Part shown: piece after piece, positions 2,337-57,896 of the stretch
Position numbering within the stretch: the stretch's first letter is position 1
How the letters are laid out: each line of letters opens with the position of its first letter
From: Rickettsiales bacterium
GTDB lineage: Bacteria > Pseudomonadota > Alphaproteobacteria > Rickettsiales > JABSSG01
Direction of reading: 5' to 3'
Assembly (NCBI GenBank): GCA_018062985.1
Contig: JAGORE010000003.1
Location: 1-57,896 of the forward strand
Length of the DNA: 57,896 nucleotides
The notes under the pieces: model-generated
What the model saw: the letters and a program-made list of their open reading frames with translations, nothing else
The model's database searches: none
Told to the model about the DNA's origin: nothing
Translations under genes and position numbers: made by a program

Positions 2337-2995
2337 TACTTACCTAACTTATCACCTGTAACAATATAATAAACGATCCTTGCTAACTTTTTAATATAAT
2401 CACCTAAACGCTCTATGTTCTTGATAGAAATAGTAAATTGCATAAGAGAGTTAACGTTGCTTGATAAACTATTTTTTGACTGCGCCGTACGATTCATTAA
2501 ATTCGAATATATTTTATCAATTTCAAGATCCAAAGACATTACATCTAAAGCCTCTTTTATATCTGAAGCTTTATAAGCATGTGTGACTTTCTGCAACATA
2601 TCAGAAACTAGCTCATTCATTCTTTGTATATCATCTAAAAACTCTTTAGGAATATCCACTTCTATTCTTTCGCGACGATTGACTATATGTTTTGATATAT
2701 CGCCCATTCTCTCAATAACAACTGACATTCTTAATGCAGAAATAACATGTCGAAGATCAATTGCAACGGGTTGACGCGTTGCCAAAACTAAAATTGCACA
2801 TTCGCTTATTTCTTTATCAATATCATTAACTTGCTTATCTATCTCATGTATCTTCTTTAAAATCTCAGGATGAAATTCCTTTAAAGCAGCAGAGTGCAAC
2901 TGAAACATTTCCAGTAATAATTTACTAGCTTTACACACAAGTAATTCCAAATGATGTAGATCTTTATCGTACGACTTGATAGTGTGGCGTTTCAT
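2336..2995 (-). CDS. phoU: Phosphate signalling/transport regulator PhoU
   Basis: 219 aa with the two-repeat PhoU architecture (...LATRQPVAIDLRHVISALRMSVVIERMGD... and ...FTISIKNIERLGDY...). Confidence 0.85.
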   Translation of the reverse strand: MKRHTIKSYDKDLHHLELLVCKASKLLLEMFQLHSAALKEFHPEILKKIHEIDKQVNDIDKEISECAILVLATRQPVAIDLRHVISALRMSVVIERMGDISKHIVNRRERIEVDIPKEFLDDIQRMNELVSDMLQKVTHAYKASDIKEALDVMSLDLEIDKIYSNLMNRTAQSKNSLSSNVNSLMQFTISIKNIERLGDYIKKLARIVYYIVTGDKLGK

Positions 2996-3139
2996 TATTT
3001 CTCCGTTATATCAATGTGATTTATTTTACTCAAGATATAAATAGAGGTCAAGACTTATAAAAACCTATAATAAGTCTTACACATACCCAATACTAACCCT
3101 TGTTTTTTACCAAGGGGTTAATAAATGTTAAATTTTATA

Positions 3140-3291: not shown

Positions 3292-4350
3292 CTAATCCGT
3301 AGAAGCAACTACTCCTATAGCACATACTTCTAAATCGCTCCGCAAAACTCCGTCACTAAATGCACAGCTAATGTCATCTTCTGTAACCTGACCTGGCATC
3401 ACTTGAAATTTCAGCGCCTTAGCTACAGAAAGTTGCATACCGTAAAAATCACTACCACTCAAACCAAGATCATTACCATCCGTTTTTAATGCTGAGAACA
3501 TTGTCGTCGTTGCTTCTTTGTAACATTTAGATCTAATGTCTTCTGAACTTATACCAGTATAACTTCCGTATTTATATAACTGCCTTGCAAAGATTGGAAT
3601 AACTGAAAATAATGGCGTTTTAAATTGAGATTGCTGCTTATATACTTCCCTCATTTCTGATATTTCATGACAAAAAGTTACGTTGTTTATTAAAGAAACA
3701 TCGACAGAAACTTTATACAATACATCTTGTCTTAATTTCGCTATATTGTCGTTATATTCCTGTCTGAGACCATCCAAATAAGGAGTATTAAACAGCCTAA
3801 TTCCGAACATTGTTGGCAGAAATTTTATGGACTCAAAATTATAAACAATATCATCAAATGATGTACCAAAATCACCAACTCTTTTTAAACCATAATAAAT
3901 AGCCTTAGCGTATCTCACAGAATAAGTGTTCTGAATATTGCCCTGGTATGAAGAATAGCAAAGATCTACTGCCACTACACTGCCTGTAACAAATGGATGA
4001 GCACCAACAACTTTTGTCATAAATACTAAGTGGTTTATGACTGTTTCGGCACCCAAAAAAGCCATCTGTACTTCTGAAGAAAGAGTAGCTTTTGTCACAT
4101 TGAATTCTGCTTGACCATAATTATAATATGAATAAGCCATATCAGCAGATAATATAACGTTAGATAAAGCCGCTCCATGTACTGTACCTTTATCAAGCTT
4201 TGACTGAAATATAGCAACTCCAGTTATACCATAAAAGCCAAATAAAGGTATCTTCCCGACCATATGCTCAATAAACATTCCAAAGCCTATACCAGAAATA
4301 GCTGAACGGGCAAAATTAAAAGAATACAGCAGCACTTGATTACGATTCAT
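3292..4350 (-). CDS. Hypothetical protein (orphan, 352 aa)
   Basis: Long uninterrupted ORF downstream of ubiA on the same strand. I recognise no motif. The N-terminus is Gly/aromatic-rich and hydrophobic (SAISGIGFGMFIEHMVGKIPLFGFYGITGVAIF) and there is no classical signal peptide. Confidence 0.6.
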   Translation of the reverse strand: MNRNQVLLYSFNFARSAISGIGFGMFIEHMVGKIPLFGFYGITGVAIFQSKLDKGTVHGAALSNVILSADMAYSYYNYGQAEFNVTKATLSSEVQMAFLGAETVINHLVFMTKVVGAHPFVTGSVVAVDLCYSSYQGNIQNTYSVRYAKAIYYGLKRVGDFGTSFDDIVYNFESIKFLPTMFGIRLFNTPYLDGLRQEYNDNIAKLRQDVLYKVSVDVSLINNVTFCHEISEMREVYKQQSQFKTPLFSVIPIFARQLYKYGSYTGISSEDIRSKCYKEATTTMFSALKTDGNDLGLSGSDFYGMQLSVAKALKFQVMPGQVTEDDISCAFSDGVLRSDLEVCAIGVVASTD

Positions 4351-24086: not shown

Positions 24087-24701
24087 TTATTTAGAGTAAA
24101 ACTCTACCACAAAATGCGGTTCCATTACCACAGGATACGGGATGTCTTCTAACAACGGAATGTTTACAAAACTGCCTTTCATTGCCTTTGGATCAAATGT
24201 CAAATAAGGAGGCACCGGCCTTTCCATTTTGTTAACGGCGTCCATGCATATAGGCATTTCCTTTGAAGATTTCTTCAATTCTATAACATCGTTTTGATTA
24301 ACCAAAAAGCTAGGTATGTTTACTTTTTTACCGTTGACTAAAAGATGACCATGGCTAACAAGCTGTCTTGCAGAAAATATTGTTGGCGCAAGATTCATAC
24401 GATACACTACAGCGTCCAATCTTCTTTCAAGCAACCCTACAAGATGTTGAGTTGTATCACCTTTTTTCTGTCTTGCTTTTAAGAAAAGGTTTTTAAATTG
24501 TTTTTCATTAATATTGTAATAACCTTTAAGCTTTTGTTTAGCTTGAAGCTGATTACCAAAACTTGTTTTTCTACGCTGACCTGTAGCACCATGTTGCCCT
24601 GGTGGGTAGTTCTTTTTATTTACAGGATCTTTAGCGCTACCCCATAAGCTTTCGCCTAATCTACGAGAAATTTTATACTTTGATTGGATAATTTTAGTCA
24701 C
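24087..24701 (-). CDS. rpsD: 30S ribosomal protein S4
   Basis: 204 aa with KYKISRRLGE, LERRLD.VVYR and an S4 RNA-binding domain (ARQLVSHGHLLVNGKKVNIPS). Confidence 0.95.
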   Translation of the reverse strand: MTKIIQSKYKISRRLGESLWGSAKDPVNKKNYPPGQHGATGQRRKTSFGNQLQAKQKLKGYYNINEKQFKNLFLKARQKKGDTTQHLVGLLERRLDAVVYRMNLAPTIFSARQLVSHGHLLVNGKKVNIPSFLVNQNDVIELKKSSKEMPICMDAVNKMERPVPPYLTFDPKAMKGSFVNIPLLEDIPYPVVMEPHFVVEFYSK

Positions 24702-29823: not shown

Positions 29824-30627
29824 TCAATTTAAAAATAACTTTTGATACCAACTATTATTAAATAATTTTTTTGATTTTTCTAAACTTCTTGGTAGGGACG
29901 CAAGTTTATACTGCGTATCAAAAGCATTACCATATGTTTTCTCTATAGGCATAACTTGGTTACTTAAACCATAATATATGGATACTACTATCGCAGTAAC
30001 GACCGCAAGAGGGTCAGCATCAGAACTTGGCACTCTATGCTCTATTCTCCTCACATCATGCATCCTATCAATTATTCTTATGGCTGCCGTTCGATTATTA
30101 TTACCCCATGAAATTTTCGTTGGTGTAAACATCGACTTTTTATATCTACGATAGCATTCTTTATGTGGCGCAAAAAAAATCATTGATTCTCTTATTGAAC
30201 CTAATAACCCTCCAACACTAAATAATAAAAAAACAGACTCTTTCCCATCGTATAAGTCAAAAACATTATAACCACTACGATTCATAAAATTAACATGTAT
30301 GTGTAAACTACTGCCTGGCATTTGAGCAAAAGGCCTAGCTGCAAAATCTATGCATATTTTTTTCTTTTTTGCAAATGACAACAGGTGCGCTTTTGATTTT
30401 TCAATACATTTTATAAAACTATTAATATCGTTAAACCTAGGCGTTCTTATCTCAAATTGATTCTCACCTTTTTCTTCTACAATCTGCACATTATTACAAG
30501 GAGTATATCTTTCTAGAGTTTCTGGAGAAGAACAATAAAACTCCAACTCTCCTCCAACCATAGGAGTCAAACCATACTCTTCGTGGATCTTTTTACAATA
30601 AAACAATAGAGTTTTTCTTAAATTCAT
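29824..30627 (-). CDS. Glutamine-synthetase-like catalytic-domain protein, truncated/minimal at 267 aa
   Basis: Carries GS catalytic-core motifs: GGELEFY (metal-binding Glu pair), PGSSLHIHVNF (GSGMHxH-like), NNRTAAIRI and RIEHRVPSSDADPL (RxExR...NPY-like). There is no N-terminal beta-grasp domain, and no room for one before the divergent pgeF. Confidence 0.6.
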   Translation of the reverse strand: MNLRKTLLFYCKKIHEEYGLTPMVGGELEFYCSSPETLERYTPCNNVQIVEEKGENQFEIRTPRFNDINSFIKCIEKSKAHLLSFAKKKKICIDFAARPFAQMPGSSLHIHVNFMNRSGYNVFDLYDGKESVFLLFSVGGLLGSIRESMIFFAPHKECYRRYKKSMFTPTKISWGNNNRTAAIRIIDRMHDVRRIEHRVPSSDADPLAVVTAIVVSIYYGLSNQVMPIEKTYGNAFDTQYKLASLPRSLEKSKKLFNNSWYQKLFLN

Positions 30628-36968: not shown

Positions 36969-37943
36969 ATGGCATCTGCTAATGACATCGTATATCTAAA
37001 AGCAAGTATAAGCAAATACGTCCCAGATGGACTTGGTACAGGCGATTATTTACAAAGAGTGTTCTTAGATCAATATGGCATTTCAATTACCACCAATCAA
37101 AAACTTACTGCAATGTCTGCAGTCATCCAAAACTCTTTTGATGCTTTTAGAAAATCGGGAGATTTTCCCATACTAGGAGATGATCCAGATATTTTAACAC
37201 TCTTTACACCAGCTGGCTCCACACAACTAGGACGATTAAATGAACAAGATCCGGTACTAAGCCAATACGCAATACCAGGCAGCACCAGCTTTAGTATTGT
37301 CTCTTTAGCCAATGCAGTTGGTAACATAAGTAGCACCTTTGATACAGGAAATCCAAGTGTAGTGCCAACGAGCTTAACACAAGTTATTGGTAATATAGCT
37401 GATATCAGACTAGCTGGAACAGAACCAACAACAGTAACTTCAAATTCTTTAGTTGATAAAATTGGTAAGATACCCATAAATTCTGGTATGGAACGCACTT
37501 CAATTATAGAAGCACTAAATTATGTTTATACTCATAAAACACCTTTACTATTCTCATTCTGCACTGCGCAAGGAGATACTCGTCTGGATCCACCATATAC
37601 TACATCAAGCCCATCAGATCAAAGTGTACTAATTGCACAACAAGATTATCACGCAAATATGCAAGGTTTACTACAATTAGATCAAATAGCAGGTAGCATT
37701 ACTAGACTTGTTGATGATCTATTCACTTGTATAAAGCTAGTAGCAATAATTGCTAAAGGAAAATCTGGAGCATATACAGTAACTAACAGCGGAACACCAT
37801 ATACAAGCAAAACCGACTGTACAACCACTGTGGCATCCACCATAATAGGATATGTTACCGGAACAGATTTTAATACCGGAATAACAGACCCTGATATTTT
37901 ACCAATTGTTGTTGGAGAAATTTGCGCTCAGTATGATAGCTAA
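36969..37943 (+). CDS. Hypothetical protein (orphan, 324 aa, Ser/Thr/Gly-rich, no signal peptide)
   Basis: Uninterrupted ORF 12 nt downstream of the OMP gene on the same strand. I recognise no motif. Confidence 0.6.
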   Translation: MASANDIVYLKASISKYVPDGLGTGDYLQRVFLDQYGISITTNQKLTAMSAVIQNSFDAFRKSGDFPILGDDPDILTLFTPAGSTQLGRLNEQDPVLSQYAIPGSTSFSIVSLANAVGNISSTFDTGNPSVVPTSLTQVIGNIADIRLAGTEPTTVTSNSLVDKIGKIPINSGMERTSIIEALNYVYTHKTPLLFSFCTAQGDTRLDPPYTTSSPSDQSVLIAQQDYHANMQGLLQLDQIAGSITRLVDDLFTCIKLVAIIAKGKSGAYTVTNSGTPYTSKTDCTTTVASTIIGYVTGTDFNTGITDPDILPIVVGEICAQYDS

Positions 37944-53813: not shown

Positions 53814-53890
<77 letters not shown>

Positions 53891-54240: not shown

Positions 54241-54327
54241 TGCCCGCGTGATGGAATGGTAGACATAACGGACTTAAAATCCGTGGGGCTTTAAGCCCTT
54301 GCCGGTTCAAGTCCGGCCGCGGGTACC
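54241..54327 (+). tRNA. tRNA-Leu (anticodon UAA)
   Basis: The acceptor stem is GCCCGCG/CGCGGGT and the anticodon arm is ACGGA-CTTAAAA-TCCGT. It has a long variable arm, a GCCGG-TTCAAGT-CCGGC T-arm, and A-CCA. Confidence 0.9.
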
Positions 54328-54787
54328 ATTCATTCTACAATACTTCAGAAGATAATTTAAGACTCATTAACCACAAGTTAATATTATTGTTCTCTAGAAA
54401 TAGATGCAGTACAATGAGAATTGTCTTACCCACAGCCCGGTATTCAATAATTGTTATGAGAAAAGTATGAATACAACAACAAGTAAAACATTATTAAAGA
54501 ATTATCTTGAGAAGAGTATAAATATACAAACAACTTCATGCTAGATCACTATTCTCTGAAGAACAACATTATTTCTTTCCTAAAATTTCGATATTATTTT
54601 GTAGTTCAAAATGTTGTAAACAATCTTTGTGAACCTAGCTTTTGATACAATTTAATTCACTCACTACAACATCACATTCCTTAAAACAAGCCTGCAAACC
54701 GCAATTAATATTAAAAATCAAATTATTAACCGATACTCTATATTTTTTAGAATATTATTAAAATTTTTACTATTTTTAAAAATACTA

Positions 54788-54816
54788 TTGCAATTTGTAT
54801 AAAATTTGTTTACTAT
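54788..54816 (+). promoter_or_regulatory. Sigma70-like promoter: TTGCAA, 17-nt spacer, TACTAT
   Basis: Good hexamers 33 nt upstream of the 890-aa ORF start. They are embedded in short TACTATT / CAATTTGTA word repeats. Confidence 0.35.
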
Positions 54817-54848
54817 TTGTACAATTTAAGTTATGAGCTTCAAATAAC

Positions 54849-57521
54849 ATGTTATATAAATGCAGCCCAAACAACAATGTTCTAGAATTTAATCTTGCAT
54901 ATAAAAATGGTAAATTTGTAGCTGCATACACAGTACAAACTGCCACTAGCAGAAGATTGTTTTATTCAATTCTTGACAATGGAAATTGCCTAAATACTAC
55001 TGCCCAAGAAGAAGCAACAGTACTAGAAAGTACTGCACTAAACTTCTTTAATGATACACATATCGCTCTTTCTTGGTTCAAGTCACCAACAGGAACGATA
55101 TACAAAGAAATAAATCTTAACACTGGATATTCAACTAACTACACACTGTCTAATAAAGCTTGCTATACAAAACTTACAAGCAATGACTTTGGTACTACTA
55201 TTGCTTGGTCAGAATCTACTGCGACATGTAATCCTCTCAAAATAAAGCAAAATTATGGACAAAATTATCAGTATACAATAGCAAATGCATGCGCTACCTC
55301 TCTAGATGTTTTAGCTATACAAGACAAAACTGTTCTCGTGTGGTCAGAGTTTATAGACGCTACAAACTCTGGGGATATAAGGTTACAAACTTTTAATTCA
55401 AGCTTGCAACCAAGCATGTCCATAACACCAATAACTCAAAACCCAGGAACCGAAGTTACTCCATCGCTAACTGCAATAAATGATGCAAGCTTTGGTCTTG
55501 CATGGAACGCTCTTCCTACAGGCAACCCGACAACTGCCTACGACGTATTTATGCAAACACTAAATACCAATGGCAAACAACTTATCGGGAAAACCCAACT
55601 CAATAAATATACTCTTAAAAGCCAAATGAGAGCCGTATTAGCTGAAAATCAAGGCGTTATAGCTGCCGCGTGGGACAGTCGAGATCAAGACGGTAGCGGA
55701 GTTGGAATATATGGAAAAATATTCTTTACAAACGGTACACTTATACGAGATGAATTTCGTATTAACCAAATTACAGCTGGAGATCAAACTAACGCTAGAG
55801 TTGTTGCAAAAGAAGATTCATTCGTTTTTGGTTATGTCTCACAGGATACTATCAATCTAGAAGTAGTTGATATTAGTTCATATATAGAAAAGAAACAAGA
55901 TTCTACACCAACAGAAGCATTGACAGATAATCGAGAGGACACACTCACACATACCTCATCTAAAACAAGCATCGAAACACCAACATATTCTAGTCTTTCT
56001 AGCAAAACTGTCTCAATATCCAAATCTATATCACCAACACCTTCTACATCACACACAATATCTCAAGCAATAGATATTACCGAAACACATACACTTAGAC
56101 ATACATATACTAATAGCTACTTACAACTACACAATGCAACACCACTACCACAAACAACAACACAAGAAAAATTAAAAACACAGGCTCCAAAAATAGCAGA
56201 CGCGATTCCATCAACACCAAAAGTAATAGCAGAAAATGCTGCAACTGGAGCAAGCGTTGCAAGCGTGTTTACACTTTCTACAACTAACGTTGCGATTGGA
56301 TCGCGTATTAATACTGCAGATAAACTTTCCTCATGTGATACTTTAGATTTTCAAAATATAACATTTCCACAACCATCATGGTCACACCATCCTTTACAAT
56401 TTTCATTAGGTGATAGCCCACTTAAATACGAAATAGGGGCCTTAGTTGGGAACTTAGCTTTATACGTAGGTGGATTTTCTATACTAACAGGACTATCTTG
56501 GTATTTTGGAGCTCCAGCTATTTTCTTTCCTGGCTCGCACGCCTTACTAGCCGCATATTTCTTTCCAGAAATAGCTAGCTCTTCAGCTACATTAATCAAA
56601 TACGGATCACCAGGGATAAAAATTGCAGCAACCTTACCTTTGATACTGATGGGGGCTCACTCTATTTATTACGGAAATTTTTTATGGACTCTAGAAGCTA
56701 CTTTCTCAACTAAAAAACTGAAGTGGCGTGCACCAAAAAATAAACCAGAATACACGAAAAAATATGGCACATATTTTGAGGATTATTCTAAGTCCAAACT
56801 AGAAGCGTTTCCTGTAGATAATATGTTTAATATAGCTACAGGATTTCTATCAGGATTCAATCCTGATGAACTATCAGAGTGCAACAACATGCTATATTCT
56901 GGTACAGCACTATACTCTGGTTATTTTATATATTTACTAGCAAGACGCCCTTATATATCTACATTAAATAATGTTTTTTATATATCGATGGCAGCTTTAC
57001 AGGCAACACCATTAATTTTGAAGACTGTTCAAGTTAACTATCCAGACCTAAAAAATAGCACATCAATGACCTCAGCTATAGAAGTAACGCCTGTAATAGC
57101 TAACTACGCCCTTGCAGCAAAAACTATATTTGATATTGGGAAACTGATAAAAGAAAGCTCCTGCTGTACCAAAGCCTCAATCTCTATCGATAGCGATAGC
57201 GATAATGATCAGCTACTCCAGGTGTTAGCACCTAGTAACGCAGCTCCATCACAACATGGATTATTACAAGCACCACCCCCTCCTTCTTCTGGTGGTGGCA
57301 ACAATGGAATAACACCATCGAACCCTCTAAATTCTGCTCAAACCAATACAGGTACTTTTGCTCCATCTGGTCACCATCCTAAACACACAACACACAGTAC
57401 GGTTCCAGATGTAACAGCATCAACGTTTGATCCATATCATAATACAGATTTAACAGCATCCCATAGCCACACCGTTTTTATTGGTTCTCATCATCCAGTA
57501 GGTTATGACTCAGAATTATAA
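54849..57521 (+). CDS. Large orphan modular membrane protein (890 aa): repeat/propeller-like N-domain, Ser/Thr-rich stalk, polytopic membrane core, Pro/Gly/His-rich tail
   Basis: Uninterrupted 2.67-kb ORF bounded by an in-frame TGA at 54834. Seven W/aromatic-centred repeats span residues ~15-340. A Ser/Thr-rich low-complexity region covers ~345-470. Five to seven hydrophobic helices lie at ~525-760. The tail reads DSDSDND...PPPPSSGGGNNG...HHPKHTTHS. Confidence 0.7.
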   Translation: MLYKCSPNNNVLEFNLAYKNGKFVAAYTVQTATSRRLFYSILDNGNCLNTTAQEEATVLESTALNFFNDTHIALSWFKSPTGTIYKEINLNTGYSTNYTLSNKACYTKLTSNDFGTTIAWSESTATCNPLKIKQNYGQNYQYTIANACATSLDVLAIQDKTVLVWSEFIDATNSGDIRLQTFNSSLQPSMSITPITQNPGTEVTPSLTAINDASFGLAWNALPTGNPTTAYDVFMQTLNTNGKQLIGKTQLNKYTLKSQMRAVLAENQGVIAAAWDSRDQDGSGVGIYGKIFFTNGTLIRDEFRINQITAGDQTNARVVAKEDSFVFGYVSQDTINLEVVDISSYIEKKQDSTPTEALTDNREDTLTHTSSKTSIETPTYSSLSSKTVSISKSISPTPSTSHTISQAIDITETHTLRHTYTNSYLQLHNATPLPQTTTQEKLKTQAPKIADAIPSTPKVIAENAATGASVASVFTLSTTNVAIGSRINTADKLSSCDTLDFQNITFPQPSWSHHPLQFSLGDSPLKYEIGALVGNLALYVGGFSILTGLSWYFGAPAIFFPGSHALLAAYFFPEIASSSATLIKYGSPGIKIAATLPLILMGAHSIYYGNFLWTLEATFSTKKLKWRAPKNKPEYTKKYGTYFEDYSKSKLEAFPVDNMFNIATGFLSGFNPDELSECNNMLYSGTALYSGYFIYLLARRPYISTLNNVFYISMAALQATPLILKTVQVNYPDLKNSTSMTSAIEVTPVIANYALAAKTIFDIGKLIKESSCCTKASISIDSDSDNDQLLQVLAPSNAAPSQHGLLQAPPPPSSGGGNNGITPSNPLNSAQTNTGTFAPSGHHPKHTTHSTVPDVTASTFDPYHNTDLTASHSHTVFIGSHHPVGYDSEL

Positions 57522-57896
57522 CTAAAAAATCAATTTTTATTATCATAACCAAATTGGTTTTTATATATATTACATTTTTACTATACAAATTTAATTACAA
57601 ATAAAATATTCTCCATAAAAACCCCTTTGATAGAGACAAAATACTTACTAAATAAGAATGTGCATATTGCATTGAAAGAAAAAACTTCATCACATATTAC
57701 CTACTTTTCTCCACCACTATATATAGCCACACTGATACAAAAAAACCACAGTATATTGTTTGAATGTAGGGGTTTGCTAAACAAAGATTGATTCTAATAC
57801 ATCTTGATTAAATAACAGTAAGAGGGAATGAAATATCATCTCCATAGATTTGCTATATCTCTTAGTTTTTCTATGAAATCGTGCGAGGTAGTGCCT

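Follow-up and report, generated by a model that had tools for sequence, protein, structure and literature searches.

A Rickettsiales gene encodes a predicted beta-propeller joined to a membrane module that appears to be a distant relative of trypanosome DGF-1 and of TRP-like proteins from fungi

What kind of protein is encoded at the end of a Rickettsiales contig, in a gene annotated only as a hypothetical protein? Housekeeping genes of the usual kind, two-component systems and a DsbA-like gene are encoded in the 57,896-nucleotide stretch of DNA analysed here (the window). At the end of the contig, with a tRNA-Leu gene 520 bp before it, lies an open reading frame of 890 codons plus a stop codon (54849..57521, + strand, ATG start). 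The original prediction, made from the letters alone, regarded its product as an orphan; the position, strand and length that it gave match the open reading frame listing exactly, and all of the peptide strings that it quoted are found in the translation. Only 4 in-frame sense codons precede the ATG, and a longer N-terminus is therefore impossible. The same 890-residue protein is called identically in NCBI assembly GCA_020049755.1, and the chance origin of a 2.7-kb open reading frame at 33% GC is unlikely.

An ortholog from another sample (contig L001) shares 68% identity with the protein, with an overall dN/dS of 0.35. The ratio is approximately 0.27 in both folded modules (0.29 in the propeller and 0.26 in the membrane module), 0.60 in the stalk and 0.46 in the tail, which, at the level of sequence comparison, shows purifying selection on the gene. 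Around codon 96 the reading frame of the L001 ortholog is shifted, which may be an assembly error or a sign of decay; the low dN/dS holds also for the part upstream of this frameshift. The GC content of the gene equals that of its contig, and no homolog of the protein was found in the GTDB representative genomes. Based on these results, the open reading frame is confirmed as a real, conserved gene, and all four modules foreseen for its product (propeller, Ser/Thr-rich spacer, helices with a Lys-rich loop and low-complexity tail) are present by composition and structure models.

The gene is preceded by a conserved upstream element (54765..54832, + strand), recognised by alignment to the upstream regions of the L001 ortholog and of a second ortholog on contig L005. 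It contains a direct repeat, TTTACTATTT(T/G)T, at 54766 and 54809, plus TATTGCAATTTGTAT. Its identity to the two other upstream regions is roughly 85%, an estimate made by eye rather than computed. The L005 protein is only 43% identical, yet its upstream region aligns highly. The two exact copies of the repeat are the sole ones within the window, and a 15-mer is common to L005. Judging from this conservation, the element is probably a promoter or operator.

The N-terminal region (residues 1-345; 54849..55883, + strand) was modelled by AlphaFold2 with a pLDDT of 89.2, a pTM of 0.90 and 26 strands. A Foldseek search of this model against the PDB gave 558 matches at E<=1e-3, the best of which are seven-bladed propellers; the top matches are prolyl oligopeptidase, BT3686, the PHL/PLL lectins and LGI1 (E ~4e-8, TM 0.57-0.63). 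The proposal of a seven-bladed propeller, for which structure prediction was the suggested check, is thus borne out with high model confidence, as a closed ring of four-stranded blades. Seven repeated units 40-55 residues apart had been described, and the seven strand motifs begin at residues 23, 72, 116, 161, 215, 270 and 324, with a spacing of 44-55 residues, each on a predicted beta-strand of the model. A short N-terminal strand (residues 2-3) adjoins blade 7 in strand order and would therefore complete that blade.

The origin of the blades may be traced through a repeat of large exoproteins that the original prediction had named. This repeat, 'EFxVN...FVVxW.S..QDGSG.GIYGQRF', exists, the blades being diverged copies of it, and the proteins P0002-P0005 consist of it, in the pattern 'W-x-S..QDGSG..EFxVN' with units of ~55 residues. 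The 'EFxVN/W-x-S/QDGSG' repeat is present in at least 501 proteins and has no entry in Pfam or NCBIfam. An HMM built from 17 units of P0002, P0003 and P0005 matches residues 250-297 of the rickettsial protein (E 2e-11), with further matches at 198-243 (4e-4) and 302-326 (1e-4), and phmmer alignments with the repeat proteins reach back to residue 157. The repeat family has a conserved Trp where the second strand of each blade ends. Alignment A1 shows no variation at W76, W120, W165, W219 and W275, so that five of the seven blade Trp positions match this invariant Trp; blades 1 and 7 have Tyr in place of the conserved Trp. The HMM and the invariant Trp place the blades in this repeat family, and the models indicate that residues 1-345 form a diverged seven-bladed propeller of this uncurated family. 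The resemblance to secreted bacterial repeat proteins (P0002-P0126, e.g. from Verrucomicrobia MAGs) consists of seven units that line up with those of the rickettsial protein and in which Trp, Asn and Gln positions are conserved. On the other hand, the repeat proteins begin with a signal peptide, end in FN3, TSP3 or cadherin-like parts and lack a membrane module, whereas the rickettsial protein has no signal peptide and its blades 1-4 are strongly diverged from theirs. With the seven-bladed lectin and hydrolase propellers (Photorhabdus PHL/PLL, BT3686, prolyl oligopeptidase) it shares the fold alone, at ~10% identity, and the likeness to lectins is no evidence of sugar binding.

The propeller is followed by a disordered, Ser/Thr-rich low-complexity stalk (residues 346-454; 55884..56210, + strand), which contains 21% Thr and 15% Ser and is 45% identical to the L001 ortholog; relatives have a Ser/Thr- or Pro-rich stretch in the equivalent position. 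At the other end, a low-complexity tail rich in Ser, Pro, Thr and His (residues 776-890; 57174..57518, + strand) ends in ...GYDSEL and is 50% identical to the ortholog. AlphaFold2 gave a pLDDT below 50 from residue 776 on, where modelled. The last residue is Leu in 53 of 104 complete family members and L, I, V, M or F in 79 of the 104. The tail is thus disordered and ends in an acidic-Leu motif common in the module family. With 115 residues of low complexity it is too short for a C-terminal barrel, and there is neither a signal peptide nor a Pfam match; the view that the protein is not an autotransporter therefore stands.

Between the stalk and the tail lies a conserved membrane module (residues 455-775; 56211..57173, + strand), supported by the model, the conserved columns and its 114 relatives. 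Modelled from 36 sequences (pLDDT 90.2, pTM 0.87), it has nine long helices. After two N-terminal helices (455-474 and 478-494) come a conserved loop with C496, W511 and 'HPLQFSLG' and then seven core helices (526-553, 562-585, 588-613, 653-669, 675-699, 705-730 and 738-775), which are 17-38 residues long and modelled as a compact bundle. The loop between core helices 3 and 4 (residues 612-652; 56682..56804, + strand), predicted to be cytoplasmic, forms a beta-hairpin and a short helix in the model. It holds 10 Lys/Arg (the family mean is 6.6 Lys+Arg), the Lys-rich stretch KKLKWRAPKNKPEYTKKYG at residues 621-639, and the family motifs W626 and 'YGxYFxDY' (640-646). In domain numbering, W187, G201, F204 and Y207 are nearly invariant in the family. 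A canonical six-TM TRP/polycystin fold was also considered for the module and rejected; the best Foldseek match in the PDB has an E of 0.29 with TM <=0.24, and matches to TRPV3 are at noise level. A profile search against PDB sequences gave no matches.

The claim that the protein is an orphan did not hold for this module. In a HMMER/phmmer search with residues 440-790 against 1.84 billion representatives, 114 cluster representatives were found at E<=1e-3, and ~10 of the relatives have the whole architecture (among them P0128, P0127, P0141, P0147, P0167, P0157 and P0138). Only the curated libraries are silent: the protein has no Pfam match even at E<=10, and neither NCBIfam nor Pfam has an entry for the membrane module as such. 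In P0136 and P0148 the module is fused to FG-GAP propellers, and in other relatives, including most short family members, it is directly preceded by a signal peptide alone. Several bacterial contigs of 31-44% GC carry the module (L003, L004, L005 and L007), and relatives of full length are spread over several independent contigs. In related loci, the genes nearby include ones for eukaryote-like LRR and ankyrin proteins. Eukaryotic contexts are also found: L006 belongs to Paradiplonema papillatum, and L010 and L011 are kinetoplastid-like or eukaryotic. A profile of the rickettsial protein and short members of the signal-peptide type (A2), whose contigs are bacterial among those that were checked, finds euglenozoan members at 1e-19 to 1e-55; an hhalign comparison of A2 with a profile of the euglenozoan type (A7) gave a probability of 100% and an E of 1e-58. 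Judging from these profiles, the module family is common to low-GC bacteria and Euglenozoa. As a member of this undescribed family, the module is no orphan.

Through its relatives, the module may be linked to known eukaryotic membrane proteins. The relative P0222 scores 30.2 bits on DGF-1_C (PF11040), above the cut-off of 27.3, while P0200 and P0207 score 22.8 and 23.5 bits, with alignments over nearly the whole profile. The module finds P0222 by phmmer at 7.1e-5 among 1.84 billion proteins, and profile A2 finds it at 7.8e-55. The TRP family (PF06011) matches 18 of 43 members with a best E of 5e-8, always in the C-terminal half of the profile (positions ~205-417); the relatives listed individually score 16-25 bits on it, all below the cut-off of 28.5. 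The protein itself matches neither DGF-1_C nor TRP in Pfam, and the link is therefore transitive. In BFVD, the module model is best matched by a giant-virus protein that bears the name 'Transient receptor potential ion channel' (E 1.5e-4, prob 1.0, TM 0.54/0.46). Judging from the profile matches of its relatives, the membrane module appears to be distant kin of trypanosome DGF-1 and of the TRP-like membrane proteins of fungi.

The layouts of these proteins are also alike. DGF-1 is described as consisting of a signal peptide, an ectodomain with seven beta-helix 'ribs' and an Ig-like 'hat', and 7-9 TM helices (bioRxiv 10.64898/2026.07.27.741050); the word 'bacteria' does not occur in that preprint, which mentions no bacterial homologs. 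Trypanosoma cruzi DGF-1 and the bodonid 'hat + TM' proteins share with the bacterial protein a large ectodomain, a 7-9-helix region and a cytoplasmic tail. In place of ribs and hat, however, the bacterial protein has a beta-propeller on a Ser/Thr stalk, without a signal peptide. Fission-yeast Pkd2 is built of a signal peptide, an extracellular domain, nine TM helices and a disordered tail (bioRxiv 10.1101/2022.08.11.503631). The fungal proteins Pkd2, Trp663 and Flc1-3 thus resemble the rickettsial protein in their extracellular N-terminal domain, nine predicted helices and disordered cytoplasmic tail, but start with a signal peptide and a lipid-binding, ML-like domain where it has a propeller and no signal peptide. 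According to PMC9727806, Pkd2 is Ca2+-permeable under stretch. Among the fungal TRP-like relatives, channel activity is known for Pkd2 alone, and a channel role in the present family would be by analogy. Because no solved structure resembles the module, this analogy is a distant one.

The orientation of the protein is indicated by several family features. Loop charges alternate across the family as expected for N-out/C-in, and homologs with a signal peptide establish on which side the N-terminus of the module lies. Cys5 and Cys47 in the propeller are invariant in nine of nine relatives, and C496 and C678 form a second invariant cysteine pair in the membrane module. Because of the loop charges and the two cysteine pairs, an N-out/C-in topology with the propeller outside the cytoplasm is likely; the DsbA-like gene of the window is in keeping with it. 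The absence of a Sec signal peptide, as originally proposed, agrees with the N-terminus MLYKCSPNNNV, which lacks a hydrophobic core and has just the four in-frame codons upstream; the closest relatives have no signal peptide either, nor do the propeller subfamily as a whole and most AT-type members. We know of no bacterial protein that moves such a long N-terminal domain across a membrane without a signal peptide, and the export of the 454-residue N-terminal region is unexplained. The helices are also weakly hydrophobic. The mean Kyte-Doolittle value of the seven core helices is 0.76, only three 19-residue windows exceed 1.3, and the first two module helices have means of 0.61 and -0.14. Across the family, the core-helix mean is lowest in the propeller subfamily (0.90), compared with 1.03 in the short forms with signal peptides and 1.40 in the long members, most of which are eukaryotic; the p value of 0.03 for 0.90 versus 1.03 is not corrected for relatedness. 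It is therefore not certain that the protein inserts into a membrane in the bacterium.

With moderate confidence, we regard the gene product as a modular, ligand-binding protein that is anchored in the membrane and resembles a receptor, an adhesin or a channel, a biochemical function that we infer. Its core would cross the membrane seven times, N-out/C-in, with the propeller, the stalk, C5/C47 and C496/C678 on the non-cytoplasmic, oxidising side and the Lys-rich loop and tail in the cytoplasm. The propeller would bind an external ligand, most plausibly a glycan or other surface molecule, and the stalk would keep it away from the membrane. The helical module would serve as the anchor; the analogy of fission-yeast Pkd2, which is stretch-activated and Ca2+-permeable, suggests that it may also transduce or conduct ions. 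The site of action in this bacterium would be the cell surface or the interface with a host, and the module family may have moved between protists and bacteria by horizontal transfer, in either direction.

Several alternatives have to be weighed against this receptor- or adhesin-like reading. The protein might be an effector that is exported by a dedicated secretion system (e.g. type IV), inserts into a membrane of the host or of the vacuole and imitates a host protein of the surface or endomembranes, of euglenozoan type. This would suit the eukaryotic homologs, the mucin-like stalk, the acidic-Leu motif common with eukaryotic members, the LRR and ankyrin neighbours in related loci and the lack of signal peptides in the propeller subfamily and most AT-type members. 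The weakly hydrophobic core helices also fit, since PMC6110835 and PMC12981334 report this property for type III and type IV transmembrane effectors; sub-threshold hydrophobicity and the missing Sec signal are what the protein shares with those described in the former. However, its 7-9 helices are far above the few TM segments of known secreted membrane effectors as given in PMC6110835, and a large cysteine-paired ectodomain also sets it apart. A folded 345-residue propeller with cysteine pairs would have to cross the host membrane from the cytosolic side. In addition, the invariant cysteine pairs are predicted to lie on the non-cytoplasmic side, paralogs of other bacteria have classical signal peptides, and no secretion-system gene was found within the window. 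On balance, we regard an effector as unlikely. A related and slightly less probable idea is that the bacterial proteins are polytopic receptors of eukaryote type (DGF-1_C/TRP-like), exchanged between euglenozoan hosts and their bacterial associates. The bacteria would then either place them in host membranes to mimic surface proteins of the host, as many-helix translocated effectors without precedent, or have supplied the membrane module from which trypanosomatids later expanded the DGF-1 family.

Other readings would change the location or the nature of the modules. Beta-propellers are common cytoplasmic scaffolds, and a cytoplasmic propeller serving as an interaction scaffold, with the helical module anchoring it to the inner membrane face, would be the simplest explanation of the missing signal peptide. 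It seems quite improbable, given that the loop charges of the family would then break the positive-inside rule, that the signal-peptide homologs fix the N-terminal side of the module, that Cys5/Cys47 and C496/C678 indicate an oxidising compartment and that the repeat family is otherwise secreted. Alternatively, the helical region could be an all-alpha domain, soluble or peripheral, that lost its membrane integration in bacteria. This would account for the mean of 0.76 and for the three windows above 1.3, but polytopic channels commonly have helices rich in Gly, Ala and Ser. Homology to proteins of Pfam transmembrane families, helices of 17-38 residues in a compact bundle and alternating loop charges make this reading very improbable. 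The contig-end position beside the tRNA-Leu gene, the frameshift in the L001 ortholog and the absence of homologs among the GTDB representatives would be expected of a decaying relic of horizontal transfer without present function. The frame of 890 codons is nevertheless intact in AT-rich DNA, dN/dS is low in both folded modules and before the frameshift, GC equals that of the contig, the upstream element is conserved and full-length relatives lie on several independent contigs; we give this possibility hardly any weight.

For the gene itself, the annotation may now be changed from 'hypothetical protein' to 'beta-propeller / DGF-1_C-like membrane protein'. For the family, at least 114 clusters define an uncurated membrane module whose fold is predicted with high confidence and has no solved counterpart. 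It appears to bridge DGF-1 of Trypanosoma cruzi, the fungal TRP-like Pkd2/Flc proteins and proteins of low-GC, probably protist-associated bacteria; the C-terminal module of DGF-1 has so far been traced within kinetoplastids alone. If this cross-domain relationship holds, it would pose a topological puzzle that bears on export, in the form of a large cysteine-paired ectodomain without a signal peptide. It would also give a specific example of genes exchanged by protists and bacteria, and would provide a tractable bacterial entry point to the biochemistry of the module.

The gene at 54849..57521 on the forward strand encodes, from an ATG start, a protein of 890 residues according to the ORF listing. 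The frame, start and length are thus as the original prediction described them; all of the peptides quoted there are present in the sequence, as are the modules, including the Ser/Thr spacer, the Lys-rich loop and the Ser/Pro/Thr/His-rich tail. Just four in-frame sense codons precede the ATG, so a misplaced start cannot account for the N-terminus MLYKCSPNNNV. A lipoprotein signal was rejected, as LYKC does not form a lipobox and lacks a hydrophobic stretch before it. An identical protein is annotated on NCBI contig JAHZTO010000792.1 (GCA_020049755.1), and a second NCBI contig carries a 418-residue fragment identical to residues 473-890. Since the GC content of the gene (0.34) fits that of the contig (range 0.30-0.35) and the orthologs are flanked on both sides by bacterial genes, eukaryotic contamination was rejected. 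Close 5' of the gene lie tRNA-Ile(GAT) (53814-53890) and tRNA-Leu(TAA) (54242-54328), and the contig ends 375 bp 3' of it; the tRNA genes and the contig end possibly mark an island insertion site or an assembly break caused by a repeat. No tRNA is found near the orthologs at loci L001, L004 and L005.

The sole close ortholog locus, L001 (JGI metagenome 3300038435), is collinear with the query over its full length, has no stop codons and contains one frameshift after codon 96 (L001 348-357); apart from this the gene is intact and evolves under purifying selection. The frameshift reflects an error in sequencing or assembly, or else the gene was inactivated very recently. Relative to this ortholog, dN/dS is 0.29 in the propeller (0.28 upstream of the frameshift) and 0.26 in the membrane module, and reaches 0.60 in the stalk and 0.46 in the tail. 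About 70 nt 5' of the start (window 54765-54832; L005 about 3650-3720; L001 1-55) are conserved in three orthologous loci. Between the window and L005 the identity of this element is about 85% by eye, against 43% for the proteins, and across the three loci it looks better conserved than the coding sequences. The element contains two copies of the direct repeat TTTACTATTT(T/G)T, with no further exact copy in the window, together with the 15-mer TATTGCAATTTGTAT. It is probably a promoter or operator; scans for promoter and terminator consensus sequences gave background level only. Some 200 nt past the stop codon lies a stretch of roughly 50 intergenic nt, CACTATATATAGCCACACTGATACAAAAAAACCACAGTATATTGTTTGAA (57714-57764), that is nearly identical at L001 about 2960-3010 and is set in unconserved DNA. 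Further 3' of the ortholog, L001 3215-4219 encodes a 334-residue low-complexity protein that is acidic and rich in Pro and Thr, has a single hydrophobic segment and matches nothing in Pfam; the matching region falls past the end of the window.

Elsewhere in the window, a 267-residue ORF (29824-30627, reverse strand) matches the catalytic-domain profile of glutamine synthetase at positions 91-306 of 344 only and is missing the N-terminal domain, so that it reads as a truncated gene or pseudogene remnant. Pfam gave nothing at E<=1e-5 for two ORFs, at 3292-4350 (reverse strand, 352 residues) and 36969-37943 (forward strand, 324 residues). Ribosomal protein S4 (24087-24701, reverse strand) has a GTG start and the N-terminus TKIIQSKYKISRRLGESLWG, which we take to resemble the alphaproteobacterial type.

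The exoprotein repeat that the original prediction had described is real. The weak matches of the first search (P0002-P0005) are built of 52-62-residue units with the motif EFxVNtyTtgdQ..PsvAal.dGgFvVvWqS.gQDGSG.GiyaqRFda.G, and in the query an HMM made from 17 of these units picks up residues 250-297 (E 2e-11), 198-243 and 302-326. In a 7-unit alignment, W76, W120, W165, W219 and W275 fall on the invariant Trp of the family. The profile of this alignment retrieves 501 proteins at E<=1e-5, typically of about 630 residues and some with TSP3 or FN3 domains; two of them have a named organism, in both cases a Verrucomicrobia MAG. The repeat is modelled in neither Pfam nor NCBIfam. Searching the word index with only the N-terminal domain gave no match, though the whole-protein search had found relatives, and we treated this as a limit of the tool and not as evidence of absence. 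AlphaFold2 modelled the domain from 30 aligned sequences with a pLDDT of 89.2 and a pTM of 0.90, giving 26 strands in seven groups. Foldseek against the PDB returned 558 matches to this model at E<=1e-3, the best being 7-bladed propellers (the prolyl-oligopeptidase propeller, BT3686, the Photorhabdus lectins PHL/PLL and LGI1; TM up to 0.63, about 10% identity), and the model and these matches bear out the proposed 7-bladed propeller. One strand (residues 2-3) lies ahead of blade 1, and blade 7 has three strands only, so from this strand order the N-terminal strand would complete blade 7. Cys5 and Cys47 are conserved without exception in the nine proteins that have the query's propeller, and in three of the nine their equivalents are the only cysteines of the domain.

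The protein had also been called an orphan, a label that the deep search refutes. The whole query has no match in Pfam, NCBIfam or PDB sequences, contig scans of GTDB representative genomes and a metagenome scan found no relative, and the word-index search gave a single close homolog (P0001, 64% identity). With residues 440-790 as the query, exhaustive phmmer against 1.84 billion representatives recovered 114 relatives of the membrane module at E<=1e-3, 60 of them at E<=1e-10. Family members are of three kinds. The short ones (400-570 residues) mostly consist of a signal peptide, about 45 residues, the module and a tail of about 100 residues; long ones carry either the query's propeller (P0128, 43% identical to the query's N-terminal domain, and P0127, P0141, P0147, P0167, P0157, P0138 and P0172) or FG-GAP propellers (P0136 and P0148). 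Conserved module positions are R486, C496, W511, P515, G534-N535, P561, W626, Y640-G-x-x-F-x-D-Y646, C678 and R700-P701. The AlphaFold2 model of the module (36 sequences; pLDDT 90.2, pTM 0.87) has helices at 455-474, 478-494, 526-553, 562-585, 588-613, 653-669, 675-699, 705-730 and 738-775; its Lys-rich loop contains a beta-hairpin and a short helix. The structural division into propeller, stalk, helical core and tail is supported. Among complete members of P0127-P0238, the C-terminal residue is Leu in 53 of 104 and L/I/V/M/F in 79 of 104, often with acidic residues at -2 to -5 (DDYEIL, DQYEIL, DKFDIL; GYDSEL at residues 885-890 of the query). This ending is present in bacterial and eukaryotic members alike and may be a conserved sorting or recognition signal.

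The query itself has no Pfam match to TRP or DGF-1_C. Among 43 long or GC-type members, 18 match TRP (PF06011; best E 5e-8), always at about 205-417 of the profile, the part equivalent to the module's second half, and six match DGF-1_C (PF11040). P0222 scores 30.2 bits on DGF-1_C, above the cut-off of 27.3; the alignments of P0200 and P0207 cover almost all of that profile, and one stretch of P0208 matches both families. The module profile has no match among PDB sequences. A GPCR or canonical TRP fold was rejected because class B GPCRs and TRPV3 appeared only at noise level when Foldseek compared the module model with the PDB (best E 0.29, TM <=0.24). In BFVD, the query model best matches a protein from Megaviridae that bears the name 'Transient receptor potential ion channel' (E 1.5e-4, probability 1.0, TM 0.54/0.46), and the next two matches are also giant-virus proteins. 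The layout of the family fits those published for fission-yeast Pkd2, with a signal peptide, extracellular domain, nine TM helices and disordered tail (bioRxiv 10.1101/2022.08.11.503631), and for DGF-1, with a signal peptide, ribs, hat and 7-9 TM helices; the DGF-1 preprint describes the membrane part alone in bodonids and leaves bacteria unmentioned (bioRxiv 10.64898/2026.07.27.741050).

Members occur on contigs of both domains. Bacterial contigs include L003 (66 kb, 31% GC; LpxK, TGT, QueA and GyrA), L004 (toxin-antitoxin modules and an 1800-residue ankyrin protein) and L005; L007 and L009 belong to one MAG labelled 'Myxococcaceae bacterium' (43-44% GC), which has at least two paralogs. P0213 lies on a eukaryotic 471-kb contig (57% GC) of JAPJBO, which is Paradiplonema papillatum (PMC11613528); P0200 lies on a 1.47-Mb contig that looks kinetoplastid-like, with all genes on one strand, and P0183 adjoins CFAP68 and EF-hand genes on a eukaryotic contig. 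A profile built from the query and short signal-peptide-type forms only finds eukaryotic proteins at 1e-19 to 1e-55, and hhalign aligns the short-form alignment with the eukaryotic-type one over 317 columns (probability 100%, E 1e-58). Bacterial and eukaryotic members are strongly related to each other. The neighbours of family member P0130 on L003 (1993-13585) are a 675-residue leucine-rich-repeat protein ending in AQSEL and a 614-residue Ser/Thr/Pro-rich protein with a DUF1566-like C-terminus, and a type I secretion-like pair (ABC transporter and HlyD/AprE) lies 4.5 kb upstream. Around P0128 on L005 (902-3325 and 6363-7220) are three paralogous genes (264, 389 and 285 residues) of unassigned family, all with 'KLDGSTS..AQTIG.D' repeats and a C-terminus that contains Cys.

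Throughout the family, the loops of the module alternate in net charge: -3.7 before core helix 1 (predicted outside), +1.2 between helices 1 and 2 (inside), -0.25 between 2 and 3 (outside), 6.6 Lys+Arg between 3 and 4 (10 in the query; inside), -0.15 between 4 and 5 (outside), +0.8 between 5 and 6 (inside), -0.8 between 6 and 7 (outside) and +0.3 after helix 7 (inside). From this alternation, and because the signal-peptide-bearing short forms place the N-terminus of the module outside, we infer a 7-TM core with an N-out/C-in orientation; the two helices before the core must then cross the membrane twice or not at all. C496, C678, the propeller and its C5/C47 pair are all predicted to be on the outer side. 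The window also contains a DsbA-like gene. Signal peptides are absent from the propeller subfamily, and a simple hydrophobicity heuristic gives none for 19 of 27 AT-type members either; the export of an outside-facing propeller without a signal peptide is a puzzle of the predicted topology. The original prediction had proposed a host-interface, vacuole-membrane or secreted effector protein. Weak helix hydrophobicity is reported as a signature of secreted membrane effectors in PMC6110835. The core helices have a mean Kyte-Doolittle value of 0.76 in the query; the propeller subfamily averages 0.90, compared with 1.03 in signal-peptide-bearing short forms and 1.40 in long, mostly eukaryotic members. 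The missing signal peptide and weakly hydrophobic core would fit an effector, but seven to nine helices and a predicted oxidised ectodomain argue against one, and this reading is possible but not the best supported.

The results presented here are best summed up by describing the protein as a propeller-tipped bacterial member of a membrane-module family that is DGF-1_C/TRP-like and shared with Euglenozoa. Such a protein may act in ligand binding, signalling or ion conduction, and may be located at the host interface.
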